Assembly (NCBI GenBank): GCA_035438805.1
Contig: DAORJA010000002.1
Coordinates: forward strand, 1-41,994
Source: Candidatus Magasanikiibacteriota bacterium
GTDB lineage: Bacteria; Patescibacteriota; Patescibacteriia; Magasanikbacterales; UBA922
Reading direction: 5' to 3'
Length of the DNA stretch: 41,994 bases
In this document: positions 5,782 through 31,750 of the stretch, piece by piece
Layout: each line of letters opens with the position of its first letter
Numbering within the stretch: the first letter of the stretch is position 1
Translations under genes and position numbers: made by a program
The notes under the pieces: model-generated
What the model saw: only the letters and a program-made list of their open reading frames with translations
Database searches by the model: none
Told to the model about the DNA's origin: nothing

Positions 5782-5809
5782 CAAAAAAACACCAGAAAAA
5801 ATCTGATGT
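5782..5809 (-). terminator. Rho-independent terminator downstream of GC-rich sigma gene
   Basis: Minus strand reads ACATCAGA-tttt-TCTGGTGT followed by TTTTTTT. The one non-Watson-Crick pair is G.U only on the minus-strand RNA. Confidence 0.6.
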
Positions 5810-5944
5810 GTTTTGGTAACGGAGCCATGGAAAGCTCCTAGTGTTGTTCTACTGCTTCTGTGTCCATCCGCTCGTGTGGGAGCGCATAGAAGCAAACCTA
5901 TATACGACTTGAGTGGCTCGATCATGAGCAATCCACTGTAGGTA

Positions 5945-6538
5945 TCAGGAACGAGCATAGCGGCTGAGCTGATGTTCCATGTTTTGCCGGGCATGGAAGA
6001 GTCGGCTCATTACCGTTCCAATCGGACACCCAAGTGTGAGAGCGATTTCTTCGTAAGTCATGCCATGGAGTTCTCGCATCTCGAACACCATTCGGTGTTT
6101 AGGAGACAGGGTCTTCAGTGCGGCTGCCATGTGAGTGTTACGTTCGTGGTGCAAGGTCACCTCCTCCGGAGAGGGAATGTCTGCATGCATACGAATGTAA
6201 CCTTTCGCTTCAACATGTGCCGCAGAGTCCACGTACTCGGTCAATGCCGCTCGCTTCTCCTTGCGAATGAGGTCGATACACGTGTTCTTCGTGAGCATCC
6301 ATAGCCAGGTGGAAAACTTCGATTTTTCATCAAACGTTTCCAGGTGGGTGAGAACTTTCACGAAGACATCATGCACGATGTCTTTTACTGTTTCGAGATT
6401 GCGAATCATGGGATACGCAATCTTCAAGACCAGTCCGCGGTATCTCTGGTAGAGCTCTCGGAACGCTCGGCGGTCGCCCTCTTTGCAGAGTTTGATGAGG
6501 TCTCTTTCGTCAGTTGTCGTAGGCTTGTCTTTTTTCAA
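5945..6538 (-). CDS. ECF-type sigma-70 family RNA polymerase sigma factor (GC-rich, orphan)
   Basis: Region 2 (FRELYQRYRGLVLKIAYPMIRNLETVKDIVHDVFVKV...FSTWLWMLTKNTCIDLIRK) and region 4 (LSPKHRMVFEMRELHGMTYEEIALTLGCPIGTVMSRLFHAR). A TTG at 6538 is preceded by GGAGG (6545-6549) at a 6-nt spacing. The longer track start at 6619 lies inside the predicted -35 box. Confidence 0.8.
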   Translation of the reverse strand: MKKDKPTTTDERDLIKLCKEGDRRAFRELYQRYRGLVLKIAYPMIRNLETVKDIVHDVFVKVLTHLETFDEKSKFSTWLWMLTKNTCIDLIRKEKRAALTEYVDSAAHVEAKGYIRMHADIPSPEEVTLHHERNTHMAAALKTLSPKHRMVFEMRELHGMTYEEIALTLGCPIGTVMSRLFHARQNMEHQLSRYARS

Positions 6539-6590
6539 GGTGCACCTCCGTAATGTCGCTCTAGCTCCCTCAATAGGCACATTGTATCTA

Positions 6591-6619
6591 AACATAGCAA
6601 TAGTACAAAAAATCGTCAA
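6591..6619 (-). promoter_or_regulatory. sigma-70-type promoter for the GC-rich sigma gene
   Basis: Minus strand: TTGACG (6619-6614), 17 nt, TATGTT (6596-6591). Confidence 0.45.
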
Positions 6620-6669
6620 GAAAATTTTGCTAGGTAGAGTCTAGTTCTATATAAAAAGTGTATAAGTGG

Positions 6670-6698
6670 TTGACACATACCTAGTATGGGGCTATAGT
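6670..6698 (+). promoter_or_regulatory. sigma-70-type promoter of a small transcription unit
   Basis: TTGACA (6670-6675), 17 nt, TATAGT (6693-6698). Confidence 0.5.
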
Positions 6699-6778
6699 AA
6701 AAATAGTGCTTACTCACACTGCATTTTTTGTAAGTAGCTCGAGCACTTTCAGAAAATAGCAGAATTAATTAAAAACAT

Positions 6779-6877
6779 ATGGTTTATATAGAAGATGATA
6801 AAAAAGAAGAGCAGGACGTAGATAACTTTGAACTCGGCAAGAAAATAGCTGAGGAAGAAAAAGAAGATGAAAGCTAA
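6779..6877 (+). CDS. candidate micro-ORF, 32 aa, highly acidic
   Basis: ATG..TAA encoding MVYIEDDKKEEQDVDNFELGKKIAEEEKEDES. Lies between the predicted promoter and terminator. No SD. Confidence 0.2.
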   Translation: MVYIEDDKKEEQDVDNFELGKKIAEEEKEDES

Positions 6878-6918
6878 GTCCTGATCAAGGAGGATGTTTA
6901 TTCTTAACCCCAATTCAT

Positions 6919-7056
6919 ATGGCAAGTAAAGCTGGATTATTTTTTGGAGCAATGGACGCGGGTAGAAAAGATGCAAAAGAAGCTGCTGAGAAAAAGAAGG
7001 CTGAAAGCAAAAAACTGCATGATCGTGTGGAAAAAAGTGATCATAAAGATAGTTAA
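6919..7056 (+). CDS. candidate micro-ORF, 45 aa, lysine-rich
   Basis: MASKAGLFFGAMDAGRKDAKEAAEKKKAESKKLHDRVEKSDHKDS. AAGGAGG at 6889-6895 is 23 nt upstream, which is far. A terminator follows 13 nt after the stop. Confidence 0.3.
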   Translation: MASKAGLFFGAMDAGRKDAKEAAEKKKAESKKLHDRVEKSDHKDS

Positions 7057-7069
7057 TAAGAAAGTAGTC

Positions 7070-7097
7070 AAAACTAGCCTTACCTAAGGCTAGTTTT
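7070..7097 (+). terminator. Rho-independent terminator
   Basis: AAAACTAGCCT-tacctа-like loop-AGGCTAGTTTT: an 11-bp stem ending in a T-run. Confidence 0.6.
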
Positions 7098-7168
7098 AAT
7101 TACGTAACGCGATGTGAAATAAAGTATATGATATAGTTGTAGTATAGGTAGCTCCTGAATTTCATTTT

Positions 7169-7723
7169 ATGGATCCACTCCGAACGGATGAGGAACTGGC
7201 ATTGGATGTACAGCAAGGAAATAGCGAAGCCTTTAGCATGTTATTCAATCGGTATGAACAAAAAATGCTTCGATATGGCAAGCGGTTTTTGTATACCTAT
7301 GAAGATTTGGAAGACGCAGTTCAGGAAGTGTTTATTAAAGCATATAAAAATGTTCAAAGTTTTAATACGACTAAAAAATTTTCGACCTGGCTCTACCGTA
7401 TTGCGCACAATACATTTATCAATGTAATCAAAAAGAATGGGAGAGAACCTGTATCATTTTTCGACTTTGATACCTTGGTGAAAATTCCATCCAAAACTAC
7501 AGACACTCTTGAAGATGATTTTTTGAAAGCACAGGATTCTGAGTCATTAGCTGGTATAATGAAAAAGCTTTCTCCGAAATATCGTGAAGCATTGGTACTA
7601 TTTTATTTTGAAGAATTGGAGTATAAAGAAATAGCAGAGGTCCTGAAAATACCAACTTCTACAGTAGGAGTCAGAATCACAAGAGGCAGAGCAATGCTCA
7701 AAAAAATGATTTCTAATACATAA
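7169..7723 (+). CDS. ECF-type sigma-70 family sigma factor
   Basis: Region 2 (AFSMLFNRYEQKMLRYGKRFL...DAVQEVFIKAYKN...FSTWLYRIAHNTFINVIKK) and region 4 (LSPKYREALVLFYFEELEYKEIAEVLKIPTSTVGVRITRGR). Confidence 0.85.
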   Translation: MDPLRTDEELALDVQQGNSEAFSMLFNRYEQKMLRYGKRFLYTYEDLEDAVQEVFIKAYKNVQSFNTTKKFSTWLYRIAHNTFINVIKKNGREPVSFFDFDTLVKIPSKTTDTLEDDFLKAQDSESLAGIMKKLSPKYREALVLFYFEELEYKEIAEVLKIPTSTVGVRITRGRAMLKKMISNT

Positions 7724-7725
7724 GT

Positions 7726-8424
7726 ATGCAGGAAGAACACAAAAAAACTAATATCGATCACATCCTCGAATCCATTAAGAAGGGTGAATTAAAAATGCGT
7801 CCCAAATGGCATTTTGTACTGAAAACAGTGCTTCTCATTTTAGGTTCAGTTATTTTGGCATTATCAATATTTTATCTAGTTAGTCTGATTATTTTTGGAC
7901 TTCGTGAAACAGGAGTTATTTTTACGCCGGGCTTCGGTGTACGAGGGACTATTTTGTTCCTGCGTTCATTGCCATGGCTTCTCATTCTATTGGTAGGAAT
8001 ATTTTTAATTATTCTAGAAATTCTCGTACGTTCATATTCATTCACGTATAAGACGCCGCTTATCTATTCAGCAGCAGTAATTGTACTTATTGCTTGTATC
8101 GGTGGATGGGTTGTTGCGCGTACACCATTGCACGCGGTCATTATGCGCCGTGCGCCAGATTTCAATATTCCTTTCGTGGGCGGGGGATACCGTGATATAC
8201 AGCATCCTATGTTCAAAGACGTACATGTCGGAAAAATCATGATAATTACTCCAAAAGGTTTTAATATACAAGATCCGCGAAATGAAATACTTATGGTGAT
8301 TATTACACCACAAACAAAAATCATGAGAGGAATAGAATTTCGTACAGGTGATCATGTAATGATTATGGGTCCACGATTTGAGAGTACTATAGAGGCATTT
8401 GGCGTACGGAAAATACCAGAATGA
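7726..8424 (+). CDS. membrane protein, putative anti-sigma partner (by position)
   Basis: Starts 2 nt after the sigma gene stop. Short cytoplasmic N-terminus followed by about 4 TM helices. No recognisable domain. Confidence 0.6.
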   Translation: MQEEHKKTNIDHILESIKKGELKMRPKWHFVLKTVLLILGSVILALSIFYLVSLIIFGLRETGVIFTPGFGVRGTILFLRSLPWLLILLVGIFLIILEILVRSYSFTYKTPLIYSAAVIVLIACIGGWVVARTPLHAVIMRRAPDFNIPFVGGGYRDIQHPMFKDVHVGKIMIITPKGFNIQDPRNEILMVIITPQTKIMRGIEFRTGDHVMIMGPRFESTIEAFGVRKIPE

Positions 8425-8502
8425 AATAAATAGTTTAGAGTAAATGTAGTAGTATATGTAGCCCGGGAAACACTATACTAAATAATTGTTACATATACTA
8501 CT

Positions 8503-9006
8503 ATGAAAAAAAGCATTACATATGCAGTATTACCTGCAATAGCACTTGCACTCTTGGGCGCAGGTGCGGTATCGGCACAAGGGATGGGAGTGGGCGGCAG
8601 TATTCGAGGTGGAGGACCAGAAGGAGGATTCTTTATCTTCAATAATGCTGATCCAGGAGAATTCGCGAGCCATCAAACTCAGATGTTTACAAGCCAAGCA
8701 GAACTTACAGGATTAAGTGTAGATGAGATCAAGGAAGCATGGGCACAAGGAAAAAATCTTGATGAATTGCTCACTGAAAAAGGTATTGATCCTGAAACAA
8801 TTCGAGCAAAAATGAAAACTGCGCATGAAGAAAAAATGAAAGAACAAATTCAGTCACTTGTGACAAAAGGGGTAATCACCCAGGCGCAAGCTGACAAGCG
8901 AATCGAATTCATGAAAAATCATAAACCCGATCCTCGAGGAAACAAAATGCATCGATTTAGCAATCGAGCTGAAACCACTAGAGGTGCTGCAGAAGTATCC
9001 TCATAA
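8503..9006 (+). CDS. secreted hypothetical protein
   Basis: Signal peptide MKKSITYAVLPAIALALLGAGAVSAQG followed by a helical, charged mature part. Confidence 0.65.
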   Translation: MKKSITYAVLPAIALALLGAGAVSAQGMGVGGSIRGGGPEGGFFIFNNADPGEFASHQTQMFTSQAELTGLSVDEIKEAWAQGKNLDELLTEKGIDPETIRAKMKTAHEEKMKEQIQSLVTKGVITQAQADKRIEFMKNHKPDPRGNKMHRFSNRAETTRGAAEVSS

Positions 9007-9016
9007 AGAATAAATT

Positions 9017-9045
9017 AAAAACCCGGACTATACATCCGGGTTTTT
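9017..9045. terminator. bidirectional Rho-independent terminator
   Basis: AAAAACCCGGA-ctataca-TCCGGGTTTTT, located between convergent genes. Confidence 0.7.
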
Positions 9046-9054
9046 AATATCGCG

Positions 9055-9750
9055 TTAAATTTCGTAGATCACATCTTTTCGTTCAACCACTATTTTCCAA
9101 CCACGCTGCTTTGCTGTCTCAAACAACTCTTTGCTTGGATTAAAAGCAATCGGATGCTCTACCAGATTCAGAAACGCTACGTCACCACTGGTGTCGCCAA
9201 CGCCAATTGATCCTTCAAGTGTAAGATTGTTTTCTGCGCAAAAATTCTTGAGCGTCGTATCTTTTACTTCATATGAAGGAAACAGGACATCACCCGTGTA
9301 GACACCTTCTTCTGAGCCGTAGATAGTTCCGTATGCTTTATCGAATTTCCAATCAATCGTAAACGCATCTACAATTTCACGAGGTGATCCAGAAATCGCA
9401 AGAAGCACATAATCTTTTCGGAGTCCTTCAATCAAATTTCTTGTGTATACATACACATGCTCCATTTTTTCTTGGACAACATATCGACTTACTTTTTCAA
9501 TGTCCTCAACGACTTTTCTTCTGAGACGATTTTTGTATGAGCGAATCAGGGACTGTTCAAAGTCGCGATAATGACCACGGCGGTTGATCCAGTCATCGTG
9601 GTATTCCTCAATTTCTTTCAGGACAATAGAAGGAAAGATATCATACTCGACCAATGCTTTGAACAATTCAAAATGCAGGTTCGAGCGGAAGATCGTGCCA
9701 TCAATGTCGAAAACAGCAATTTTTTTCTTAGTTTCTTCCATAAAACTCAC
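9055..9750 (-). CDS. HAD-IB family hydrolase (phosphoserine-phosphatase-like)
   Basis: Motif I VFDIDGTIF and motif IV GVGDTSGDVAFL, with a cap domain between them. Confidence 0.8.
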   Translation of the reverse strand: MSFMEETKKKIAVFDIDGTIFRSNLHFELFKALVEYDIFPSIVLKEIEEYHDDWINRRGHYRDFEQSLIRSYKNRLRRKVVEDIEKVSRYVVQEKMEHVYVYTRNLIEGLRKDYVLLAISGSPREIVDAFTIDWKFDKAYGTIYGSEEGVYTGDVLFPSYEVKDTTLKNFCAENNLTLEGSIGVGDTSGDVAFLNLVEHPIAFNPSKELFETAKQRGWKIVVERKDVIYEI

Positions 9751-9877
9751 TCACAAGTATAAAGAAAACAGTATACGCTATATAGGCATTTTGTGCAAGA
9801 CGAAAGTATCCGCACCCGATTGAACAATCTGATAGACTGAACAATACGGGTACGGATAACGACACTAGTCTCGAGAA

Positions 9878-10246
9878 TTAGGCGACTGCCAAGTCTTGGC
9901 CATAGCCCGCATCGTGCGCCACCTCTCCCGGTCTGGGTTTGGGAAGCGTGTACGTCATCATAGCAGTCTTTTTCGTGAAGTCGAACTTCTCGATCCAGAC
10001 CGACGGACGTTCGTCATCCATGCGGTAGTAACCTTCGATCTTCAGATGATCCTTCGATTTGGCGATCAGGCCGAGACTCCAGATGCGACAGGAGTGCTGG
10101 ACCAGTTCACCAGATTTCGAGTCTCTTCCGTAGAAGGTCACTTCACTGTCACTGAAGAAGTCGCGAGAAGTCGCGAACTTCATGATCAGGTCAGCGTAGC
10201 TCGGATTTTTGTCACCCTCGATCAGCATCGTAAACACTTGGGCCAT
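9878..10246 (-). CDS. hypothetical protein, GC-rich island B
   Basis: 122-aa ORF with ATG start. SD AAGGAGAGAG lies at 10254-10263 (minus strand). About 50% GC by hand count. A long hairpin (9807-9858) lies downstream. No motif recognised. Confidence 0.6.
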   Translation of the reverse strand: MAQVFTMLIEGDKNPSYADLIMKFATSRDFFSDSEVTFYGRDSKSGELVQHSCRIWSLGLIAKSKDHLKIEGYYRMDDERPSVWIEKFDFTKKTAMMTYTLPKPRPGEVAHDAGYGQDLAVA

Positions 10247-10433
10247 GTGGCCACTCTCTCCTTGGACGGCATTAGTGACGGAGACACTACTCCTCGGTAT
10301 GCCGTAAAACCTGAGGAAGGTAATAGCGTAGCATGTTATTCTCTATGAGAAAATATGTCTGTGTGTATAAAATAGGATATGTTACTTTTTGTACTGTTTA
10401 ACGTATACTATACAAAGATTATAATATGCAACT

Positions 10434-11000
10434 ATGCCTTTAGGTTTTTTTGAGGACAAAATGGTGCAGGCCCAACAAGGGGACCGTAATGCTTTTGGTG
10501 AAGTCTATGATGAGTTTGTAAAAAAACTCTACGATTATGCTTTTTTTCGCGTAAAGGATAAACAAACAGCAGAAGATATCGTAGCGGACACATTTATAAA
10601 AGCGCTTGAACATATAAGCTCATTTGACCCGAACAAAGGCTCCGCTGCATCATGGCTTTATCGAATAGCAAGAAATACCTTGGTTGATCAATATAGATCA
10701 CATAAAAAAACTACAGCATTTCCTGAAGATTTTGATGTTGCAGACACTGCAGATTTAAAAACCCACATAGAAAATAGAGATATGCTGAGGAACGTAGAAA
10801 CTGCATTGGAGAAATTATCAGAGCGTGAACGTGAAATTATTATACTTCGAGTATGGGATGAACTTTCATACAAAGAGATTTCAGAAGTATTGGGAAAAAG
10901 TGAAGCAAGTTTGAAAATGGCTGCATCACGGGCATTGAAAGCATTGCGTACACAATTGCCTGTCGCACTCTACATTGCTCTGTTACTCCAGATGAAGTAG
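10434..11000 (+). CDS. ECF-type sigma-70 family sigma factor
   Basis: NAFGEVYDEFVKKLYDYAFFRV...DIVADTFIKALEH...AASWLYRIARNTLVDQYR, and LSEREREIIILRVWDELSYKEISEVLGKSEASLKMAASRALKAL. Confidence 0.85.
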   Translation: MPLGFFEDKMVQAQQGDRNAFGEVYDEFVKKLYDYAFFRVKDKQTAEDIVADTFIKALEHISSFDPNKGSAASWLYRIARNTLVDQYRSHKKTTAFPEDFDVADTADLKTHIENRDMLRNVETALEKLSEREREIIILRVWDELSYKEISEVLGKSEASLKMAASRALKALRTQLPVALYIALLLQMK

Positions 11001-11056
11001 ATCGTAGTACAAGTGTAAGGATATCCCAATATATAACATAATTTACTAACAGTAGT

Positions 11057-12586: not shown

Positions 12587-12595
12587 TGAAAAAGT

Positions 12596-12624
12596 AAAAC
12601 ACACGATTGAATGTCGTGTGTTTT
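12596..12624 (+). terminator. Rho-independent terminator
   Basis: AAAACACACGA-ttgaatg-TCGTGTGTTTT. Confidence 0.7.
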
Positions 12625-18445: not shown

Positions 18446-20329
18446 ATGTCTGTCGACAAAAAAATTCTTGCACAAACCTTTGCACAATCGTGTCGTGCGT
18501 CAATTTTGGAAATGACTGCTCATGCGGGCAGTGGTCATCCAGGCGGATCACTCTCATCAATTGATTATCTTTCAGTACTCTATACTTCAATAATTTCACA
18601 AACTGGTGAACCAGTATTTATTTCAAATGGACATATTTCACCGGCAGTATATTCGGTATTAGCTGAAATGGGCTGGGTTTCAAAAAAAGAAATGATTGAG
18701 GGATTTAGAAAATGTGGTTCAAAATTTGAAGGGCATGTGACACGCCATGTGCCAGGTGTGTGGTATGGGACGGGACCTCTCGCAATCGGACTTTCAGTCG
18801 CGTGTGGGACTGCTCTTGGGTATAAAATAAAAAAACTCAAACAAAGAGTATACGCAGTGATTGGTGATGGGGAAGGAAATGAAGGGCAGATTTACGAAGC
18901 CATGAATTTTGCGCATAAATACAAACTAGACAACTTGATTGTTATGATGGATTATAATCATGTTCAGTTGTCAGACGCTACTGAGCGTATCATGCCATAT
19001 AATCCTGTAGAAATTTTTAAAGCTGGTGGATGGAATGTGCTTGAAATTGATGGACATAATTATGATGATATTTTTGAAGCATTAGAAATTGCCAAGAATC
19101 AAAATGGACATCCGACGTTTATTTGTGCAAGTACCATCATGGGCAAAGGAGTAGATTTTATGGAAGCTGACGGAGCTGACTATAAAGCTACGTGGCACGG
19201 GAAGGCTCCAAGCAAAGAACAAATAATTGAAGCTGTAGCAGCGCTTAGTATAAATCCAGACGAAGAAAAAATGCTAAAGAAATTTAGAAAAAGTATTCTT
19301 ATCAAGCCACCAGTGTGGAAAGATACAGAATTTGGAGCAGCTGTTAAAATAAAATCAGGAAAAGTAAAATTGTATGCAGTGGATACTCTTACTGATTGTC
19401 GAAGTGCATATGGTGTGGCTCTTGTTGATCTTGCAAAGTTGAATAAAAATATTGTGGCACTCACTGCAGATCTCGGAGGATCAGTAAAAACTGATGGAGT
19501 ACAAAAAACATATCCTAATCGTCATATTGAGTGTGGAGTTGCAGAGCAGCTCATGGTCTCAGCCTCAGCGGGGCTTGAAATAGCGGGCTTTGTGCCGTTC
19601 TGCTCTACATTTGGGGCATTTATGACAAGCCGTGCAAAAGATCAAGCTCGGGTAAATGATATTAATGAAACGAATGTAAAAATGGTTGCAACTCACTGTG
19701 GACTCTCTGTCGGAGAAGATGGGCCAACGCATCAGGCAATTGATGATTCTTCTTCAGTCGTAGGATTTTTCAATACTATGCAATTGGAACCTGCTGACCC
19801 GAATCATTGCGATAGGCTCGTTCGTTTCGCCGCAACACACCAAGGTAATGTGTATATGCGTATGGGAAGACATAAAATCCCAGTACTCACTACTGGATCA
19901 GGAAAACCTTTTTATAATGAAAAGTACGTGTATACCTATGGTAAGACTGATGTTTTACGCAAGGGTGATTCCCTGACGATTGTTGCAATGGGCGGAGTAG
20001 TAGTTGAAGCACTTCACGCATGGGAACAATTAAAGTCAGGCGGAGTTTCAGTAGAAGTGATTATTGCAAGTTCAATCAAAGCTTTTGATGAAACGGTGTT
20101 TGAATCAATCAAAAAAACTGGCATGGTAATAACGGTTGAAGATCATAATCCATATGCAGGGCTCGGTGGAATGCTTGCACGAGAATGTGCTAGTCGAGGA
20201 ATAGTGTATCAAAAGTATGAAATGCTTGGTGTGAGAGAATACCAGTTATCAGGTACTGCAGAAGAGCTTTATCATGCAGCCGGAATTGATACTGGAGCTA
20301 TTGTGGCAAAAGTAAAGGCTATGCTATAA
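18446..20329 (+). CDS. tkt: transketolase
   Basis: GSGHPGGSLS, the GDGEGNEGQIYEA TPP-binding motif, a pyrimidine-binding domain and a C-terminal domain. 627 aa. Confidence 0.9.
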   Translation: MSVDKKILAQTFAQSCRASILEMTAHAGSGHPGGSLSSIDYLSVLYTSIISQTGEPVFISNGHISPAVYSVLAEMGWVSKKEMIEGFRKCGSKFEGHVTRHVPGVWYGTGPLAIGLSVACGTALGYKIKKLKQRVYAVIGDGEGNEGQIYEAMNFAHKYKLDNLIVMMDYNHVQLSDATERIMPYNPVEIFKAGGWNVLEIDGHNYDDIFEALEIAKNQNGHPTFICASTIMGKGVDFMEADGADYKATWHGKAPSKEQIIEAVAALSINPDEEKMLKKFRKSILIKPPVWKDTEFGAAVKIKSGKVKLYAVDTLTDCRSAYGVALVDLAKLNKNIVALTADLGGSVKTDGVQKTYPNRHIECGVAEQLMVSASAGLEIAGFVPFCSTFGAFMTSRAKDQARVNDINETNVKMVATHCGLSVGEDGPTHQAIDDSSSVVGFFNTMQLEPADPNHCDRLVRFAATHQGNVYMRMGRHKIPVLTTGSGKPFYNEKYVYTYGKTDVLRKGDSLTIVAMGGVVVEALHAWEQLKSGGVSVEVIIASSIKAFDETVFESIKKTGMVITVEDHNPYAGLGGMLARECASRGIVYQKYEMLGVREYQLSGTAEELYHAAGIDTGAIVAKVKAML

Positions 20330-20353
20330 TCAACTGCGGTGTAATTAATCATT

Positions 20354-20929
20354 TTGTATATACCTAACATAGTGATTACAATTCCCACGTTAAACGAATG
20401 GAAAGAGGTCAGAGCTCTAAGGCTTCAAGCTCTCAAAAATGAACCTCATGCATTTAAGAATGGTTATCACGAAGAAATACAATTGACTGAGAATGAATGG
20501 AAAAAGAAAATTTATAATTCATCCCGAAATAATCGGGATGAATTTTTTATTATAGCAAAAGTAGATAATCGAATTGTAGGAATGGTGGGTGCTGACTTGA
20601 GAGACGAGAAGACATGGTGTCTTAAATCAGTGTTTGTTGCATACGAGTATAGGGGACAGGGGATTGGAACACGACTTCTTGAGGAAGTAATAGAAAAGCT
20701 TGAAAGAAATTATCATGCACGCATGATCGAGCTCACGGTAAACATACTGCAAATAGCGGCAATTCGAGTGTATACTAAGTGTGGATTTGTGGTGAGGGAG
20801 ATTATGGAAAATCAAGAATCAGGCGATGGAAAAAAATATACTAAGTTTAATATGTATCGGAATTTTTGTCCGATTACCATGCAGGGACATGTAAATGATT
20901 TTGAAAAAACATTGCTTATCCACAGATAA
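20354..20929 (+). CDS. GNAT family N-acetyltransferase
   Basis: Acetyl-CoA motif A VAYEYRGQGIGTRLLEEV. TTG start in the track, so the exact start is uncertain. Confidence 0.75.
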   Translation: MYIPNIVITIPTLNEWKEVRALRLQALKNEPHAFKNGYHEEIQLTENEWKKKIYNSSRNNRDEFFIIAKVDNRIVGMVGADLRDEKTWCLKSVFVAYEYRGQGIGTRLLEEVIEKLERNYHARMIELTVNILQIAAIRVYTKCGFVVREIMENQESGDGKKYTKFNMYRNFCPITMQGHVNDFEKTLLIHR

Positions 20930-20941: not shown

Positions 20942-20969
20942 TTGACGTGAAATCCTGCCATGGTATATT
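20942..20969 (+). promoter_or_regulatory. sigma-70-type promoter with extended -10, upstream of the GC-rich non-coding island
   Basis: TTGACG (20942-20947), 16 nt, then TGgTATATT (-10 at 20964-20969). Confidence 0.4.
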
Positions 20970-21052
20970 AAACATAGATTAAAATACAAAACAGTTTCAC
21001 CCCAGCATCTATTCTGTAGAACTTGTAGTATAGATGGTGCTGTGAATGTTTA

Positions 21053-21400
21053 GGGGGCAAAACAATCGCTCGCACCGACATGTGCCATTTCCCGTTCCCG
21101 TTTCCTTTTCGCTCCTTCCGTGCCCCTGGCTATCTTTCCCTCAACCTGGCCTGTTGTAGGCCCTCAACTGTTGCGACTCTCGTCGTCTTAGTCCTTCGAG
21201 GCCCTTCTGGCCTCGCTCTGAGAAACGCACCGCCTATCGTGCACAAAAGCGGTGTGAGCGCAGTCAGTTCACGTAGTCGAGAGACAAGAAGAAAAGGGGT
21301 CCATGACCCCATCCTAGCCAGCAGACCTTCGGGTCGACCAAGTTCCTTCGTCCCATGAGGGGCGGCAATCACACGTACCAACGTGTGTGCGCCGCCCCTC
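21053..21400 (+). ncRNA. candidate structured non-coding RNA of unknown class (strand tentative)
   Basis: About 57% GC in an AT-rich genome. Only mutually antisense, RBS-less ORFs are present. Local hairpins: GGCCT/AGGCC 21148-21162, GAGGCC/GGCCTC 21198-21214, CACCGC/GCGGTG 21228-21254, GGGGTC/GACCCC 21296-21310, GACC-UUCG-GGUC 21324-21335 and a 44-nt terminal hairpin at 21357-21400. Plus strand is favoured only by the upstream promoter. Confidence 0.4.
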
Positions 21401-21443
21401 CGTACACCTTTGTTTTCTTAATTGTTAAGGAGGCAAAAGCAAC

Positions 21444-23460: not shown

Positions 23461-23630
23461 AGAGCAAATTAGTTACTATTACTAAATTAAATATATATTC
23501 TAGAGTATACGAGTCGCAAGAAATAAGCAATCAAATATGTGGATAGAGTGTGTAAACCTACACATTCCACACAATCGACTATTGGTTAATTTCGAAAAAC
23601 TCTCAGATTTAGTGCTAAATCTTGCAGACC

Positions 23631-23676
23631 TAAAAAGCAAAACGACCACCATTTCTGGTAGTCGTCCATCTTTGCT
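23631..23676 (-). terminator. hairpin terminator-like element in non-coding region
   Basis: Minus strand reads AGCAAAG-atgg-ACGACTACCA-gaaa-TGGTGGTCGT-TTTGCT followed by TTTTT. Confidence 0.4.
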
Positions 23677-23734
23677 CCGTTGACTATGTCTTTACCGAGC
23701 TTTTATATATTTACCGAACTGTGACTATATAAAC

Positions 23735-23763
23735 AAAAACAGCCTAGTGATTAAGCTGTTTTT
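23735..23763. terminator. hairpin terminator downstream of GC-rich ORF D
   Basis: AAAAACAGC, 11-nt loop, GCTGTTTTT. Preceded on the minus strand by a perfect 9-bp GC hairpin GGCCGACCG/CGGTCGGCC (23770-23800). Confidence 0.5.
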
Positions 23764-23880
23764 GAGAGTGGCCGACCGTTATTCGCGCTATCGGTCGGCC
23801 GAGCACTAGACTTTCGCTTCCTCGTCATTGTGTGACAGGGATACAACGTAGGACTAATGCTTCATGCCACTCGGATCAAC

Positions 23881-24369
23881 TTAGGTGGGATGGTCGTACG
23901 GCAGCGGCGACGCGGCGATTTGCTGCGCGAGCATGGCCGTCTGGATGATCTTTTCCGGATCATCCGGATACATGCGCACGAGCGCGTCGCACATGGCCAA
24001 CCCCTGCATGACCGAACGAATGTCCCCCTCGATGAAAATACCATCGACACAATCCACGTGTCCATGATCCGAAGTGCACATCATGAAGTTGTAGAATTGA
24101 GTGGAACCTGACGGCGGTATGTAGGAGCTGACCTGCTTGCGAACCGCATCGGTATCCTCGGGAAGTCCCTTCTCGCTTGCTTCGATCAGTGCCCCCTCAA
24201 TTTGAGAGAAGGTGACCAGACCCTGACTGAAGTTGCGATTGAACTCCCTCTTGAGATCCATCTTCTCCACGATGAACCAAAATTGCTGCCCAGGCACTGC
24301 CAGGCAGACATGGACGAGCTTAAGCTCCTTCCAGAGCGGGTGCTCGACTTCGTGATTGAAAAGACTCAT
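23881..24369 (-). CDS. hypothetical protein, GC-rich island D
   Basis: 162-aa ORF with ATG start. SD GAGGAGGA lies at 24377-24384 (minus strand), 7 nt from the ATG. Contains CTSDHGHVDC (possible metal site). No family recognised. Confidence 0.6.
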   Translation of the reverse strand: MSLFNHEVEHPLWKELKLVHVCLAVPGQQFWFIVEKMDLKREFNRNFSQGLVTFSQIEGALIEASEKGLPEDTDAVRKQVSSYIPPSGSTQFYNFMMCTSDHGHVDCVDGIFIEGDIRSVMQGLAMCDALVRMYPDDPEKIIQTAMLAQQIAASPLPYDHPT

Positions 24370-24395
24370 TCGCTATTCCTCCTCGAATGTTGATC

Positions 24396-24497
24396 ACACG
24401 CGTGGCGCGTGTCCCCTATGATAGTAACGTGATTTGAGTGGTATATGAAGGGGAATAATACTCCAAATTGATTTCAGAGCATAATCCCCCTTCATAT
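24396..24497 (-). promoter_or_regulatory. structured 5' leader of ORF D
   Basis: Palindrome ACACGCG-tgg-CGCGTGT (24396-24412). A perfect 11-bp stem ATATGAAGGGG/CCCCTTCATAT (24443-24453 / 24487-24497) encloses a 33-nt loop. Candidate promoter TTGACT-17-TGgTATTTC lies at 24547-24519 (minus strand). Confidence 0.35.
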
Positions 24498-24575
24498 GAT
24501 TAGAAAGAACAGAATTAAGAAATACCATAAAATTTTGTAAAAGTCAAAGGAGGAGAGTTCGACCCCCATTTGACC

Positions 24576-24610
24576 TTAACAAAAATCTCCGCTTGGATAA
24601 GCGAAGATTT
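24576..24610 (-). terminator. Rho-independent terminator of tRNA-Asn
   Basis: Minus-strand RNA forms AAAUCUUCGCUU-aucc-AAGCGGAGAUUU (12 bp including one G.U) followed by UUUUUG. On the plus strand the same pair is a C.A mismatch. Confidence 0.7.
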
Positions 24611-24616
24611 TAGGTG

Positions 24617-24986
24617 CTCGGCGGGCGGGGCTCGAACCCGCGACCCACTGGTTACAGTATCCTCTCTCTTTCAAGAGAGACTGGACTATGTCATCACCCA
24701 TGCCATACCTGGCAGAATAAATTCTCCAAGAGCCTGGGGGTGCGGAGCGCTTCCCGCCCCGACGATGTCGGGGAAGTACTCCCATAAAGGGATAGTCTCT
24801 GAACCTTCCTAATCCATTACTAATTCCAGTAAAACTGGAGTATCGGACTAGGCTTGGCTGCAGGTTACCCTATGAAAAAATCCATAGTAGCGGTTTCCTG
24901 CAATTCACTCCGTTGGCATCCTGACATTACTATCAGGAGCTGCTAATTTTTAACAGCCAGTTGCTCTACCGCTGAGCTACCGCCGA
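24617..24986 (-). tRNA. tRNA-Asn(GTT) interrupted by a group I intron (exon 1 24986-24953, exon 2 24654-24617)
   Basis: The joined exons give TCGGCGG-TA-GCTC-AGCGGTA-GAGC-A-ACTGG-CTGTTAA-CCAGT-GGGTC-GCGGG-TTCGAGC-CCCGC-CCGCCGA-G. This is a 72-nt cloverleaf with all stems Watson-Crick. CCA is not encoded. Confidence 0.9.
24655..24952 (-). ncRNA. group I self-splicing intron (IC3-like), 298 nt, no ORF
   Basis: P1 pairs exon GCUGU with intron GCAGC, with a U.G pair at the 5' splice site. The intron ends in G. P7 halves are GACUAU and AUAGUC. Core tracts CCUGCAGCCAAGCC and GGAAGGUUCAGAGACUAUCCC resemble the Azoarcus and cyanobacterial tRNA introns. A P9-like UCUCUCU-UGAA-AGAGAGA hairpin is present. 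Confidence 0.8.
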
Positions 24987-25007
24987 ATATATGCGTAAAC
25001 CTGCTAC

Positions 25008-25036
25008 AGCATACTATATAAATCGTGTTTAGTCAA
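25008..25036 (-). promoter_or_regulatory. sigma-70-type promoter of tRNA-Asn
   Basis: Minus strand: TTGACT (25036-25031), 17 nt, TATGCT (25013-25008). Lies about 20 nt upstream of the tRNA 5' end. Confidence 0.5.
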
Positions 25037-25120
25037 TCAGTATTGAAGATATATATGGTAGGGTATATCCACATGTGCATTTGCTAACAAAAAATCCTTT
25101 GTCTTTAGGTAGTGGGATTT

Positions 25121-25149
25121 ATATACAAAAACCGCTCGTCCGAGCGGTT
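25121..25149 (-). terminator. Rho-independent terminator after def
   Basis: CCGCTC-gtcc-GAGCGG flanked by A- and T-runs. Confidence 0.6.
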
Positions 25150-25161
25150 GTATTTTTTGGA

Positions 25162-25659: not shown

Positions 25660-25671
25660 ACGAAGATAAAA

Positions 25672-27591: not shown

Positions 27592-27601
27592 GAATGTGCG
27601 T

Positions 27602-28396
27602 TTAGGAGAAAACGAATTCTGCTGTGAGGTATCCTACGCCAAAAGGATGTTCATACGCAAGGCGTTTGAATTCGTAGTTGATGTTCTTGAGTGATCCGAG
27701 AAGCATGAGCAGCGGCTTATATCCCGTTTCAGCTGCAGATTCTATAAATTCAGGATCAAGGGTCGCAATGCCGCTTGTATTGTGTGATTGGAGGAGTTCA
27801 ATAATTGTGTCATCAAATTTTTTTCCAGCTTCACGGAATCCAGCCGGTGAATCAGTGGTGATGCCGTGTGAAAGATTTGCTGAAGCAATAAGCGCGACAC
27901 GTTTGTCTGAATCCATGCAGACTTCTTTAATGAGATTACCAAAACTAAGGTGAGTTTTGGCGTCCAAATCGCACGGACCTATAGGTAATACTTTTATATG
28001 TGTAAGATGTCCTGCAAGAGAGTGGAGAGGGACGGTGGAACCATGATCAAGTTTGTCTTCGCTTATGAGCTTGAGTGGTATATTTTCTCTGCTTGCACCA
28101 TGAGCGATCTTTGCTGCAAAGTCAGGAGATCCAACAAATTCTCGGGTAAGCGAATGGTCACCGAATTCTTCAAATGAAGACGTAAACTTAGTGTGAGCAT
28201 TTATTACAAACGTATCAGAGTGGGCCTGAAAGTGTGGAGTAAAAATAATAATCAAATGGGGTTTTGAAAGATACAAATTTTCTTCGAGTGTTGAAAGTGC
28301 CTCGATCGTTTTAATTGCTTTGTCGCGGTCAGACCCACCAACAGGTGGAACAAGCACTGGTGAATGGGGGACAATGGCTCCAAATACGAGAGGCAT
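27602..28396 (-). CDS. LigB-family (class III extradiol dioxygenase subunit B-like) protein
   Basis: AIVPHSPVL, DHGSTVPL and SANLSH motifs. ATG at 28396 is preferred (11 nt after the upstream stop). The track uses GTG at 28429, which overlaps the upstream gene. Confidence 0.65.
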   Translation of the reverse strand: MPLVFGAIVPHSPVLVPPVGGSDRDKAIKTIEALSTLEENLYLSKPHLIIIFTPHFQAHSDTFVINAHTKFTSSFEEFGDHSLTREFVGSPDFAAKIAHGASRENIPLKLISEDKLDHGSTVPLHSLAGHLTHIKVLPIGPCDLDAKTHLSFGNLIKEVCMDSDKRVALIASANLSHGITTDSPAGFREAGKKFDDTIIELLQSHNTSGIATLDPEFIESAAETGYKPLLMLLGSLKNINYEFKRLAYEHPFGVGYLTAEFVFS

Positions 28397-28407
28397 AAGT
28401 AGGGGGG

Positions 28408-30702
28408 TTAGAAATTTTTGAGTGCCCACGAAGCAAATCGATTTGGCTCGTCGAATCGAGATTCGAGACCAAAGTCAGGATTACCCATGGTAAGAAGAAT
28501 GAATTTTTTACCGTCCTGGTTTCTTTCGACGAGCATGATAAGACAACTGCCTGATTCATAGAGAAAACCAGTCTTGCTTGCGAGTATAGTGTATGGCAAA
28601 TCTCGCTTGAGTAGTGTGTTGCTGTGGATTTCCGTATGTCTTACGGTGGCATCACTGCTCGTGAGCTCGTCATATGAATACCGTCCAGTACCCAGGGCTG
28701 TCGCTATCGTATCACTTTTAATGGCTTCGCGGAATAGGGTCAATACTTCCTTACCAGTTCCCACATTCGCAGGATCATACCCATAGGAATCAGTAAAATA
28801 CATGTCAGTAAGGCCCAAACGCTGTGCTTCTATATTCATAAGCTTTGCAAAACTCTGAACAGTATATCCAAGACTGTCTGCGAGCATCACAGAAGCGGTA
28901 TTGTTCGAGCCAATAAGCATGGAGTAGAGAATATCCTTATTTTGGAGGGTGTCACCCTCAGCTACTGCAAAATTGTGATACGCAGATTTATGTTTTGATG
29001 CGGTGTAGGTTGTTGAATCAGTAAGGGGTAGTTGTTGATCAATTAGTACATGAGCGGTCATGAGCTTGGTAAGTGAAGCAAGTGGGCGCACAGTGTCTAT
29101 ATTTTTCCCCGCTAGAATAGTACCGTCGGTATCAGCGACAATATACGAGTCAATCGGAGTTTCAAATGTAGTGCCTATAAATGAAACATGGTCCGCGGGA
29201 GTCCGGACCATGTAATCGACTGGTTTTTTGGTTTCAGTTGTAGGTGTTTGAGTGGTGGGTGGTAGAGTATTAACGGTGGTTTGAGTGGAATTAGAAGAGG
29301 TTGAAGTCGAAGGTTTCAGATAAATTGGTTCTCCAGTCTCATGTGCCATTCCTACATATTCATTTACCCATACAATATTTTTTGGATTAAATCCAAGTCC
29401 ATTAAACACATCTTCACTCGCAATGTGTCGTTTCTTGCCTTTTTCTACGACGTATACTTCATTAAATCCTTTGATTCCAAACACAGTACCATCTTTGAGG
29501 ATTACCGGAGGACCAAATGTTGCCCCCAGTGTTCCTACCTGGTCAGTCGAGAGTTTTTCAAGTTGCAAGTGGGAAAAGTTAGTTTTGAGAATTGCTGGAT
29601 CAAATATCGGATGCATTAATCCTTCATCCACAAAATATACATTTTTTGATTCCTTGATTTCAATGATACGGCCCAGTGGAGTCGTCGCTCCGGTACCTTC
29701 AATCATTTTGCCGAGGATGTATGGATCGAGGTCACTTGAGCTTACGTTGATAATCTCATCAGGATTATATCCAATCTGTTTGAGAGTTTCGGCGCTTGCA
29801 AAAGGACGTTTGAAATCATAGTCAAGTAGATAATAGGTAGATCCATCAAATGCTATCGAATAGTTGGGAAGAGAAATATTTTTTCCTTCAGCATAGCGGG
29901 AAAGTTCGCTCACAGGAACTGTGAGGATTAATTTTGGATCAAAACGTGTTGCAAGGGCGCTCATGCTCGTAAATCTTCGTTTTTCTCCATCCTGAATCAG
30001 ATATACATCAGGCGCATCTGCAGTTTTTATGAGCGATCCGTCAGGGTACACTTGATCAAACCATTCTTGCCATAATTTCCAAAAATTCAAATTTCCTTGA
30101 AGATGAGGAGTGTAGGTATAGAGGAATGCGGTCGCATAATTTGCAGGAGTAACTATTGCATCATCAATAGTATAGGTAGTCATTGCTCGTTTGATCCACC
30201 CTTGAGAGTTAACGTTGTCGTAATACCAGCGCATGATGCCTGCGGCACTGTCCACTTGTGTTCCAAATCCTTTGTGTTTCTGAATATCCGGATCACTCAT
30301 GGAGCAACTATCACACACACCATATCCGGTAGCCCAATCCAATTGTTTTTGTGTTGGATTGTCTTCAGAAATCAAACTTTGCTCCTTCTGTAGTTTGACA
30401 AGAACATATTTTGGATTGATTCTATTGTCTACAGCAGCTTGGTAAATAATGTCAGATGCGGGTCGTTCAATTCCATCTTTATCCGGAGTGGTGAGATTTG
30501 CAATATAGCTTCCTTTATCAGTAAGGAATGCTTGGATATCTTCACGGTTCATACTCTGCCAATTCTGCATCTCTTCGTCACTCAAGAGGTAATTAGGATC
30601 AAAAGTGGCTGCAGAGAGGGAACTCGGGAGAGTTAAAATAAGCGAAACAAAACCAAATAAAGCCTTTTTATATAATTGCATAGGAATTTTAATTATAAGC
30701 AT
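28408..30702 (-). CDS. secreted D-alanyl-D-alanine carboxypeptidase (peptidase S11) with large N-terminal extension
   Basis: The C-terminal domain has SLTK (SxxK), SNN (SxN) and KTG motifs. About 480 aa of uncharacterised N-terminal region. A signal peptide is obvious if the start is ATG 30681 (MQLYKKALFGFVSLILTLPSSLSA). Confidence 0.8.
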   Translation of the reverse strand: MLIIKIPMQLYKKALFGFVSLILTLPSSLSAATFDPNYLLSDEEMQNWQSMNREDIQAFLTDKGSYIANLTTPDKDGIERPASDIIYQAAVDNRINPKYVLVKLQKEQSLISEDNPTQKQLDWATGYGVCDSCSMSDPDIQKHKGFGTQVDSAAGIMRWYYDNVNSQGWIKRAMTTYTIDDAIVTPANYATAFLYTYTPHLQGNLNFWKLWQEWFDQVYPDGSLIKTADAPDVYLIQDGEKRRFTSMSALATRFDPKLILTVPVSELSRYAEGKNISLPNYSIAFDGSTYYLLDYDFKRPFASAETLKQIGYNPDEIINVSSSDLDPYILGKMIEGTGATTPLGRIIEIKESKNVYFVDEGLMHPIFDPAILKTNFSHLQLEKLSTDQVGTLGATFGPPVILKDGTVFGIKGFNEVYVVEKGKKRHIASEDVFNGLGFNPKNIVWVNEYVGMAHETGEPIYLKPSTSTSSNSTQTTVNTLPPTTQTPTTETKKPVDYMVRTPADHVSFIGTTFETPIDSYIVADTDGTILAGKNIDTVRPLASLTKLMTAHVLIDQQLPLTDSTTYTASKHKSAYHNFAVAEGDTLQNKDILYSMLIGSNNTASVMLADSLGYTVQSFAKLMNIEAQRLGLTDMYFTDSYGYDPANVGTGKEVLTLFREAIKSDTIATALGTGRYSYDELTSSDATVRHTEIHSNTLLKRDLPYTILASKTGFLYESGSCLIMLVERNQDGKKFILLTMGNPDFGLESRFDEPNRFASWALKNF

Positions 30703-30834
30703 AGTCTAGTATAGCAAAAAAAGTACGAGCTCTCCAGTATTATGCACAAAGTTTTGGCAAAATAGCTAAGCTGAGCTATATAATAATCCCGAAATGTTGA
30801 AATTTTTTTCTGCTGTGGTAATAAGGAGTGCGTC

Positions 30835-30945
30835 ATGCTGAAGATGATTCTCGAGTTCATTCAATTTCTGGACGACCTGATCCTTCGCTGGTGGCTCAGA
30901 AGCGGCAGCTCAAAGCTCCTCGCGACCAGTTACACCGACGCCTGA
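30835..30945 (+). CDS. candidate 36-aa peptide, GC-rich island E
   Basis: AAGGAG (30823-30828) lies 6 nt before the ATG. Encodes MLKMILEFIQFLDDLILRWWLRSGSSKLLATSYTDA. A terminator hairpin follows immediately. Confidence 0.35.
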   Translation: MLKMILEFIQFLDDLILRWWLRSGSSKLLATSYTDA

Positions 30946-30946
30946 A

Positions 30947-30978
30947 CCCTCGTACACAATACGGGGGCTTAATTTTTT
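30947..30978 (+). terminator. Rho-independent terminator
   Basis: CCCTCGTA-cacaa-TACGGGGG followed by CTTAATTTTTT. Confidence 0.55.
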
Positions 30979-31098
30979 AGACACATCCGTTGCATATTAC
31001 AGTTGACAGAATTACATAAAAAAATTAGGCTAGCATTAGCGCCTTGTGTCATAGTGATCAATGGTCGCTGGTACACAGTTAGCCAAAGGAAAAAGGAA

Positions 31099-31650
31099 AT
31101 GCAACGCATCTTCGCCGCATTCCACTTCGTCATGGTGTTAGTGCTCAGTCAGTTTTCCGTCTCCTGCGACGGTAATCTCTCGGACACCTGCGCCATCTCC
31201 AATCCCTGCACATCGGTCATCGACTACGATCAATCCTCGATCGAGAAGATGCTGCACGATGTTCGGGCCGACTACGTCGACCCGAGCTTCACGAGCAGTA
31301 ACTACCCGTTCAAGAGTCACGGAACTATCACCAAAGATCTGGTATTCGTGGAAGTCGAAGTCTCGATGTCCACCGAAGAATTAATCGCGGAGATAGCCGA
31401 ACGCAGTCTCGAACTCGCGAACCTCGAGGACATGCTCGCGTTTGGGGCGCAATACCCGCCAGGAATGGTCTGGGAGCGTCCTATCGTCGTCTTCGGCTCA
31501 GATCGCGAAGACTCACCGGGTGTATGGGTCTCACCCTGCCTAGATGTGATCGAGCGAGATAGCCGGAATGCGTTCACCGCAGTGATACCGGTCTACTCAA
31601 ACGAACCTTCGTGGCAGACCGACACACGCATTCTAGCAGTAAGACCATAA
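31099..31650 (+). CDS. hypothetical lipoprotein, GC-rich island E
   Basis: ATG at 31099 is preceded by AAAGGAAAAAGGAA. Signal plus lipobox MQRIFAAFHFVMVLVLSQFSVSC. 183 aa. The track's TTG start at 31003 lies in AT-rich promoter-like sequence. Confidence 0.6.
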   Translation: MQRIFAAFHFVMVLVLSQFSVSCDGNLSDTCAISNPCTSVIDYDQSSIEKMLHDVRADYVDPSFTSSNYPFKSHGTITKDLVFVEVEVSMSTEELIAEIAERSLELANLEDMLAFGAQYPPGMVWERPIVVFGSDREDSPGVWVSPCLDVIERDSRNAFTAVIPVYSNEPSWQTDTRILAVRP

Positions 31651-31676
31651 CAGGTCTTCGCACCTCACCCTGCTCG

Positions 31677-31708
31677 CCTCCGTATCACTACGGGGGCTTT
31701 CATTTTGT
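31677..31708 (+). terminator. Rho-independent terminator
   Basis: CCTCCGTA-tcac-TACGGGGG followed by CTTTCATTTTGTTT. Near-copy of the hairpin at 30947-30978. Confidence 0.55.
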
Positions 31709-31750
31709 TTACAATAAGCGTTTTTTCTGCTACGATTTCCTTAAAATTAT

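Follow-up and report, generated by a model that had tools for sequence, protein, structure and literature searches.

Why should an AT-rich genome whose genes mostly start without a Shine-Dalgarno (SD) sequence carry a handful of GC-rich genes that have one? The question is raised by a 41,994-nucleotide (nt) stretch of a Candidatus Magasanikiibacteriota bacterium (contig DAORJA010000002.1 of assembly GCA_035438805.1, positions 1 to 41,994; hereafter the window). An initial annotation had picked out five GC-rich patches here (A to E) and proposed either repeated small acquisitions from a higher-GC, SD-using donor or a distinct translational class. Comparison with diverged relatives led us to a different view of the coding patches, namely cassettes A, B, D and the two units of patch E (E1 and E2). 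On balance, these are probably accessory cassettes that have long resided in the clade and whose ancestry is probably foreign or phage.

We first consider composition. In a profile of 300-nt sliding windows (median GC content 0.400, robust standard deviation 0.040), the five patches were reproduced as runs of GC-rich window starts at 5851-6201, 9801-10051, 21001-21201, 23701-24151 and 31051-31451, with peaks of 0.533, 0.533, 0.580, 0.567 and 0.577, respectively (z = 3.4-4.6). The hand counts behind the original claim were exact (0.50 for 9961-10020 and 0.57 for 21121-21180 against 0.40 for 9121-9180), and a single run had gone unlisted, a sixth at 24551-24900 (GC 0.52, z = 3.0) that marks an intron-split tRNA gene described below. 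Codon usage separated the cassettes from native genes in the same way. GC content at third codon positions (GC3) was 0.60 in A, 0.68 in B, 0.71 in D, 0.76 in E1 and 0.67 in E2, compared to 0.326 ± 0.041 across 39 native genes (z = 6.6-10.6). GC1 and GC2 were ordinary and the excess was confined to third positions, so that it reflects codon usage and not amino-acid content. C-ending codons were common to all cassettes (TTC 79%, TAC 83%, ATC 62%), and the dinucleotide ratios (rho) of TC (~1.5), GA (~1.4) and GC (0.8-0.9) differed from those of native genes (1.03, 1.06 and 1.18).

The second contrast concerns translation initiation. SD strength was scored as the duplex energy of the region upstream of each start with CACCUCCUUU, and all five SD strings reported initially were found at their positions. 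Energies were -13.1 (A), -9.2 (B), -11.6 (D), -7.7 (E1) and -5.8 kcal/mol (E2), compared to a median of +0.4 for 39 native starts, three of which reached -6 or lower (Mann-Whitney, p = 3e-4). The statement that every coding patch has a strong SD therefore stands for A, B, D and E1 (-7.7 to -13.1) and has to be given up for E2, as random positions in island sequence reach -5.8 or lower in 15% of cases. When any start codon within the first 40 codons was allowed to compete, 4/39 native genes reached -9 or lower. The general lack of SDs on native genes was otherwise upheld, including the one exception named at the outset, atpE (40256..40486; ATP synthase subunit c), which has an SD-like AGGAAGGA upstream. 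A TANNNT box was present 4-12 nt 5′ of the start codon at 17/39 native starts (e.g. 30702 and 22719 on the minus strand, 10434 and 4031 on the plus strand), all of them lacking an SD, which suggests that native mRNAs are widely leaderless or very short-leadered.

The cassettes shared a common plan. This comprised a TTGAC-type promoter-like site in AT-rich DNA, a GC-rich hairpin leader (~30-150 nt), an SD 5-9 nt before the start, one open reading frame (ORF), a GC-rich 3′ hairpin and a terminator, giving single-gene units of 0.2-0.8 kb. Hairpins or terminators flanked each patch, as described initially, and integrase or transposase domains were found neither in nor beside any patch. Nor did the patches share any repeats with one another, and hence they have no common ends, att or attC-like sites.

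Whether these traits are recent was examined in relatives found via the YibE/F-like gene between patches C and D, which gave 15 loci in a reference-genome collection holding one genome per species. The closest loci were from Candidatus Magasanikbacteria metagenome-assembled genomes, i.e. L001 (72% identity) and L002-L005 plus L010 (~65%), and gene order was kept among the relatives (RsmI, DD-carboxypeptidase, LigB-like, PriA, Def, tRNA-Asn, a variable region, YibE/F and GNAT). Further counterparts came from protein searches.

Cassette B (9807..10345, minus strand) provided the closest comparison. Its coding sequence (CDS; 10246..9878) encodes 122 amino acids (aa) and is preceded by a conserved leader of ~80 nt (10247-10333), containing CUUCCUC at 10319..10313 and the SD AAGGAGAGAG at 10263..10254, and followed by a long 3′ hairpin (~9858..9807). 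A word-indexed search of 5.8 billion proteins returned two orthologues and nothing else (P0003 and P0004, 61% identity, also 122 aa), located on the short contigs L016 and L017. Both had an identical context, consisting of a divergent native gene for an extracytoplasmic function (ECF) sigma factor, a downstream HAD hydrolase gene, the same SD and a leader almost unchanged in sequence. The differences that separate L016 from L017 fell 5/8/28 across the three codon positions, which identifies B as a real gene under purifying selection. GC3 was 0.63-0.72 in all three genomes, and at 0.63 substitutions per four-fold degenerate site (K4) the GC content of those sites (GC4) was 0.60-0.74. Leader and 3′ hairpin were 88-100% identical among the three, compared to 68-78% for the CDS, and the leader was nearly invariant (window 10247-10333; L016 222-331; L017 143-252). 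Folding predictions pair the invariant CUUCCUC further upstream with the SD, AAGGAGAG, and this suggests that the leader may act as a translational switch, making translation conditional through SD masking. The leader varies too little to offer material for a covariation test of this pairing.

Greater divergence, and the same retention, was seen for cassette E2 (31003..31697, plus strand). This unit contains a gene for a 183-aa protein with a hydrophobic signal-like segment at its N-terminus (31099-31650), the weak SD AAAGGA (31085-31090), a terminator hairpin (31676-31697) and a doubtful promoter candidate with a 22-nt spacer (TTGACA at 31003-31008, TAGCAT at 31031-31036). The 5.8-billion-protein search found nothing for E2. 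Its orthologue in L002 (2933..2364; 35-39% identity, GC3 0.71) occupied exactly the same slot, with the SD GGAGAAGGAG and a similar CCGTA...TACGGGGG terminator. K4 was 1.0 and GC4 0.78/0.89 for this pair, compared to K4 of 0.96-1.16 and GC4 of 0.24-0.41 for the native flanks of the same two loci. In L004, slot E was a 127-bp spacer with no cassette. The neighbouring E1 (30754..30978, plus strand) was absent from both L002 and L004. It has a promoter-like TTGGCA-17-TATATA (30754-30782), the SD AAGGAG (30823-30828), a 36-aa ORF, MLKMILEFIQFLDDLILRWWLRSGSSKLLATSYTDA (30835-30945), and a terminator with a T run (30947-30967). If E1 is translated, its product could be a small membrane-active peptide.

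Cassette D (23734..24547, minus strand) extended the comparison furthest. It comprises a promoter-like site (TTGACT 24547..24542, 16-nt spacer, GTATTT 24525..24520), a leader hairpin of 21 bp (24497..24443), the SD GAGGAGGA (24384..24377), a CDS of 162 aa (24369..23881), a 3′ hairpin (23800..23770) and a terminator (23764..23734). The word-indexed search recovered only D itself, and an exhaustive HMMER search of 1.84 billion cluster representatives gave a sole small homologue, P0007 (190 aa), encoded on L099. The two proteins were 27-36% identical, depending on the alignment span, and shared the motifs C..DHGH and QQ[IV]AASPLP[YF]. The L099 counterpart had AT-rich flanks and a CDS with a GC3 of 0.76. 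Its promoter, leader hairpin and terminator were homologous to those of D, as was the 3′ hairpin, in which compensatory changes occurred; for the pair, K4 was 1.38 and GC4 0.79/0.63. D was absent from all six syntenic loci and adjoins the tRNA-Asn gene, in its hypervariable 3′ flank. That region differed in content from locus to locus. The window (23461-24616) holds D, whilst L001 (2922-10001) carries a 752-aa AAA_13/PDC-S06 defence-like ATPase, a RimK-like ATP-grasp protein and duplicated lipoproteins, and L005 (2799-8640) has CsoR/CopA-type copper-resistance genes. A viral-contig match of D (L098) was discarded as a spurious DNA-polymerase word match, and looking up D's contig by exact sequence gave nothing.

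Across the B, D and E2 comparisons, untranslated hairpins were better conserved than the fast-evolving proteins, and AT-rich native-type promoter regions were co-conserved with the cassettes. Such retention of GC4 is unexpected under neutral decay toward host composition. Two explanations remain, selection or another mutational regime on the one hand and re-seeding of the slots from an unsampled GC-rich pool on the other.

These data bear directly on the first proposal, in which five separate and fairly recent small acquisitions came from a higher-GC, SD-using donor (the episymbiont's host or a phage) with their traits still un-ameliorated. Much about the cassettes agrees with import, as initially proposed: GC3 of 0.60-0.76 and codon and dinucleotide signatures unlike those of native genes, patchy presence among relatives, the position of D beside a tRNA gene in a hypervariable region, the phage-type domain of D (described below) and the isolation of A, which had no close relative in any search (best match 27-40% identity). 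Horizontal gene transfer and genomic islands are also on record for Patescibacteria (PMC12455944). What found no support is the recency and the notion of five discrete events. Recent repeated import is poorly supported because diverged relatives have kept cassettes with the same odd composition: counterparts of B, E2 and D retained regulatory sequences and composition at K4 of ~0.6-1.4, those of B and E2 also their slot, together with their AT-rich native-type promoters. The synteny comparison thus spoke against recent import for B and E2, and it also showed slot E empty in L004 and the slot of patch C to be variable. Moreover, patch C is not a gene. We consider recent import unlikely.

The protein searches did not reveal a donor. 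Donor-like homologues of B, D and E were absent from 5.8 billion proteins, as were those of D from the 1.84 billion cluster representatives, and scans of viral contigs with A, B, D and E2 gave no donor-like homologue. The only relatives found lay either on AT-rich Magasanikbacteria-like contigs or, as distant phage repeats, in 41%-GC DNA. B, D, E1 and E2 matched no family in Pfam, NCBIfam, PHROGs or PADLOC, sequence searches of the PDB gave nothing significant, and AlphaFold2 models were unusable, with confidence (pLDDT) of 41 for B (3-sequence alignment) and 39 for D (2 sequences).

The same counterparts dispose of an artefactual origin, in which reads of a GC-richer organism would have been joined into an AT-rich contig. 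The window is a metagenome-type contig, for which such joins are conceivable, but the same AT/GC junctions occurred in independent assemblies from other samples for B (L016, L017), E2 (L002), D (L099) and C (L010, L003), and the cassettes have precise promoter and terminator boundaries. We regard chimeric assembly as effectively refuted.

A third reading takes the cassettes as native genes forming a distinct translational or regulatory class, whose GC-rich, structured, SD-dependent mRNAs are held by selection with no need of foreign origin. Recent import explains the comparative data no better than this alternative, which was already raised in the initial annotation and now gains weight. Composition persisted through about one substitution per four-fold site, untranslated structures were conserved beyond the proteins, and SD masking is predicted in B. 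In addition, the CDSs of the window cassettes exceeded their synonymous codon shuffles in folding stability (z = -2.4 to -3.6, native mean -0.5). With 12 cassettes set against 14 native genes, the excess gave p = 0.011, which hints that mRNA structure is under selection. SD-blind Bacteroidia offer a precedent, since the small number of their genes that do have an SD make up a specialised regulon (PMC7797042, PMC9976891, PMC13000453). However, patchy presence and the filling of one slot by unrelated cassettes are what accessory or mobile genes typically show. The proteins evolve fast and are orphans or nearly so, the domain of D is known elsewhere from phage proteins, excess structure is not seen throughout, and no selective agent was found. 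We consider a purely native class unlikely.

The Bacteroidia parallel deserves closer comparison. In Flavobacterium johnsoniae, the SD-dependent class includes genes such as rpsU and prfB (PMC7797042, PMC9976891, PMC13000453, PMC13000457). The window shows the same pattern of core genes without SD and a very small set with strong SDs. In contrast to Bacteroidia, it belongs to another phylum, its SD-led genes are fast-evolving accessory ORFs of alien composition and not ribosomal or release-factor genes, and many of its native genes look leaderless rather than A-rich-leadered. In Bacteroidia the anti-SD is sequestered by bS21, bS18 and bS6, with rpsU itself carrying an SD; the comparison made here is on the SD pattern alone. 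Among the window proteins scanned against family libraries, none matched bS21, bS18 or bS6.

The better reading of the cassettes is, then, that of long-term residents of the clade, leadered and SD-dependent as a class, and not of five recent imports. Their ultimate origin is probably foreign, with a phage or another mobile gene pool as the best lead. Giant proteins of 1,800-4,400 aa contain 4-8 copies of a core of ~110 aa that is present in D. Three of their loci were fetched (L100 8001-16544, L101 5567-18721, L102 8001-16067), with proteins of 2,688-4,384 aa and 5-8 repeats. P0005 (L100) is neighboured by a Gp23 capsid gene, gp13 and a tail sheath gene, and P0006 (L101) by gp13 and a weak gp15 match; P0008 (L102) had no annotated neighbours. 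With these T4-type capsid, neck or sheath genes, L100 and L101 look like jumbo-phage structural modules. Several L100 genes have strong SDs. L100, the only phage locus checked for composition, was 41% GC, and that phage is therefore not itself a GC-rich source.

Known types of mobile unit resemble the cassettes only in part. Genomic islets and islands have been catalogued in Patescibacteria by composition, often next to tRNA genes (PMC12455944). Like islets, the cassettes have atypical GC, GC3 and oligonucleotide content, a patchy distribution and orphan content, and one lies in a tRNA flank. Unlike them, they are single genes without integrase, transposase or flanking direct repeats, contain an AT-rich native-type promoter within the unit, and have stayed un-ameliorated over about one substitution per synonymous site, with no identifiable donor. 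Of the classical hallmarks of genomic islands, deviant composition and presence/absence polymorphism were found, whereas mobility genes or repeats, a donor lineage and recent arrival were not. Phage morons are autonomous promoter-gene-terminator units of atypical composition lying between phage genes. The cassettes resemble morons in that each has a single small ORF framed by a promoter of its own and an intrinsic terminator, and also in their deviant composition, conserved neighbours and, in D, a domain known from phage proteins. They differ in lying between chromosomal housekeeping genes, with no prophage and no phage genes nearby in the window. Integron gene cassettes were considered and rejected. 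The units here have their own promoter-like sites, ordinary terminator hairpins and a dispersed, singleton arrangement with no integrase, and the 3′ hairpins showed no R″/R′ core sites on reading.

Cassette A (5789..6619, minus strand) is a GC-rich unit with a gene for a 197-aa ECF-type sigma factor. A promoter-like TTGACG-17-TATGTT (6619..6591) and the SD GGAGG (6549..6545) precede the CDS (6538..5945), whose start is the TTG at 6538 rather than the longer-ORF start at 6619; a 3′ hairpin (5838..5821) and a terminator (5809..5789) follow. The protein matched Sigma70_r2 (PF04542, 1.4e-18), Sigma70_r4_2 (PF08281, 8.9e-16) and Sigma70_ECF in Pfam, and sigma70-ECF (TIGR02937) in NCBIfam above the cut-off (8.6e-34). 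It consists of sigma-70 regions 2 and 4 only, which places it among ECF (group 4) sigma factors, and it also matched phrog_1740, a PHROGs family annotated as phage sigma factor. All relatives from the metagenome scan were ECF sigma factors of 22-40% identity, and the viral contig scan gave only a sigma factor of 28% identity. No gene for a co-transcribed cognate anti-sigma factor was recognised downstream of A. Before the terminator there is only an overlapping 73-aa ORF (5994..5773), whose composition is not coding-like and which was not scanned against families. Three ECF sigma genes lie within 5 kb, at 5945-6538 (A, GC-rich and SD-led), 7169-7723 and 10434-11000. The latter two are native and AT-rich, are divergent from cassettes A and B, respectively, and each shares 28% identity with A. 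The idea that A regulates the cassettes was dropped. An ECF-type promoter motif common to them was sought, and by eye only ordinary TTGAC-type -35 boxes were seen.

The relatives held cassettes of their own. In L001 and L002, further GC-rich ORFs of unrelated sequence filled slots left empty in the window, most with an SD and with the same dinucleotide signature; L004, L005 and L010 had none in 9-21 kb (9 kb for L010). One in L002 (20192-20731, plus strand; 179 aa, GC3 0.67) lies between a PGA_cap-family gene and its upstream neighbour and contains a segment resembling the C-terminal domain of the RNA polymerase alpha subunit (PF03118, E = 4.6e-6). In L001, a PGA_cap-family gene neighbours a GC-rich cassette of 160 aa (19624..20106), and ~110 nt from the 5′ end of that gene occur in duplicate flanking the cassette (19561-20484); part of the 3′ end of the upstream gene is duplicated there as well. 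These duplications look like the footprint of an insertion or recombination event. Two other ORFs of L001 also looked GC-rich and SD-led. The one at 6698..7084 may be a further cassette, and that at 8042..8470 was discarded since it is antisense to a RimK-like gene.

Several points weigh against regarding the cassettes as long-resident units of foreign ancestry. No donor or vector was found, and the case for a foreign ancestry is made by composition, patchy distribution and a single domain related to phage. Four-fold sites were few (27 for E2, 19 for D and 33-47 for B). Polarised third-position changes in B numbered 9 GC-to-AT and 6 AT-to-GC, counts compatible with stationarity that reject neutral decay only marginally (p = 0.064). 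At 981 nt, L099 is too short to place the slot of the D counterpart, and the loci of relatives compared do not cover the region of cassette A. Matches in the promoter consensus scan were no more numerous than in shuffled sequence. SD usage was also less uniform than the overall pattern, with a weak SD on E2 and no clear one on the L001 cassette 19624..20106, and excess mRNA structure was not general, the L002 orthologue of E2 giving z = +0.67. Finally, a competent anti-SD in the ribosome of this bacterium is assumed here; an Rfam scan found no 16S rRNA gene in the window.

Patch C (20942..21420) differs from the other four. Its non-coding nature, already stated initially, was borne out, and it is a candidate for a structured RNA. 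A conserved promoter-like TTGACG-16-TGgTATATT (20942-20969), a 5′ hairpin (20996-21046), a GC-rich core and a terminal hairpin (21357-21400) followed by CCUCCGUACACCUUUGUUUUC succeed one another along the plus strand. Because of the conserved promoter-like site and the terminal hairpin, a plus-strand transcript of ~440 nt is probable. Homologues occupied the same slot in L010 (8554-9074) and L003 (1550-2068). The ORFs of ~92 aa were not conserved, with frame-breaking indels and differences of 15/17/18 across codon positions. RNAalifold predicted ~95 pairs, from only three sequences and with the structure derived from those same sequences. Compensatory pairs numbered 20, compared to 8.1 ± 2.1 in shuffles (0/500) and 2-7 in slid controls. 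These pairs and the non-triplet indels ruled out a decayed gene. Rfam 15 gave no hit in 21040-21440 at E ≤ 1 and ARAGORN found no tmRNA or tRNA in the patch; tmRNA and RNase P RNA were rejected on these results, on the absence of their signature motifs on reading and on the lack of the element in several relatives. Patch C was missing from L001, L002, L004 and L005, which makes it accessory and not housekeeping, and in L001 its slot is taken by one of the extra cassettes of that genome. On the plus strand, all three copies conserve the anti-SD-like motifs GCUCCUU (including CUCCUU) and CCCCUCCGUACACCUUUG, which could matter in a genome with few SD-led genes.

The sixth GC-rich run corresponds to a tRNA-Asn(GUU) gene (24617..24986, minus strand) split by a group I intron. 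Both this patch and patch C are GC-rich because structured RNAs are GC-rich in AT-rich genomes. The intron (24952..24655, 298 nt, no ORF) lies between U35 and U36 and matched Rfam RF00028 over the full model (positions 1-253; 85.7 bits, E = 1.3e-20, threshold 50). Read from the sequence, the joined exons (24986..24953 and 24654..24617) give a 72-nt tRNA-Asn(GUU), with a U before the 5′ splice site and an intron-terminal G. ARAGORN did not report the split gene. The exons were 83-95% identical to intron-less tRNA-Asn genes in the same place in L002 and L005; those two relatives lack the intron, whereas L004, L010 and L001 (92% identity) have it. Group I introns are known in the anticodon loops of bacterial tRNAs, such as cyanobacterial tRNA-Leu(UAA) and tRNA-fMet. 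The intron here resembles these in its full-length RF00028 match inside the anticodon loop, the U before the 5′ splice site, the terminal G, the lack of an intron ORF and its variable presence among relatives. It differs from the cyanobacterial cases in its host gene, tRNA-Asn(GUU), and in residing in a bacterium of the candidate phyla radiation (CPR). A full-text literature search returned no paper on a group I intron in bacterial tRNA-Asn, although this does not prove novelty.

How might long-resident cassettes of this kind function among such different neighbours? They occupy intergenic slots between core genes, one of these being the variable 3′ flank of tRNA-Asn. Start regions folded more strongly in cassettes (-7.7 to -12.9 kcal/mol) than in native genes (-5.7 ± 2.8 kcal/mol; p = 0.002). 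Core mRNAs are presumably leaderless or have short A/T-rich leaders. A GC-rich, folded leader could probably not be loaded in the same manner, and recruitment of the 30S subunit would require SD/anti-SD pairing. Because a folded, GC-rich leader would need that pairing, the SD would be expected to travel with GC-richness whatever the origin of the gene. In cassette B, the predicted pairing of CUUCCUC with the SD would mask it and make translation conditional.

A bolder proposal is that the clade keeps, by selection, a second gene 'dialect'. Its members would be fast-evolving, possibly phage-derived accessory ORFs with GC-rich, C-ending codons and structured, leadered, SD-dependent mRNAs, set against an AT-rich core genome that is leaderless or SD-independent. 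As a group they would be translated or silenced, via the availability of the 16S anti-SD or via an anti-SD-like RNA such as patch C. We put this forward as speculation that is unlikely at present.

Compositional islands are usually read as a clock, in which an alien signal means recent arrival and then fades. The cassettes described here keep theirs. Islets acquired by horizontal transfer were already known in Patescibacteria; what is new is that both alien composition and SD persist across diverged counterparts. If this persistence holds on complete genomes, it would point either to an unsampled GC-rich pool that re-seeds the slots or to selection for another style of coding and initiation. 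Either explanation would be informative on how genes move and how translation is controlled in CPR bacteria, organisms that so far can be neither cultivated nor manipulated. The window, whose 42 kb hold five SD-led genes and about forty SD-less ones, also offers test cases for the use of SDs by CPR ribosomes.

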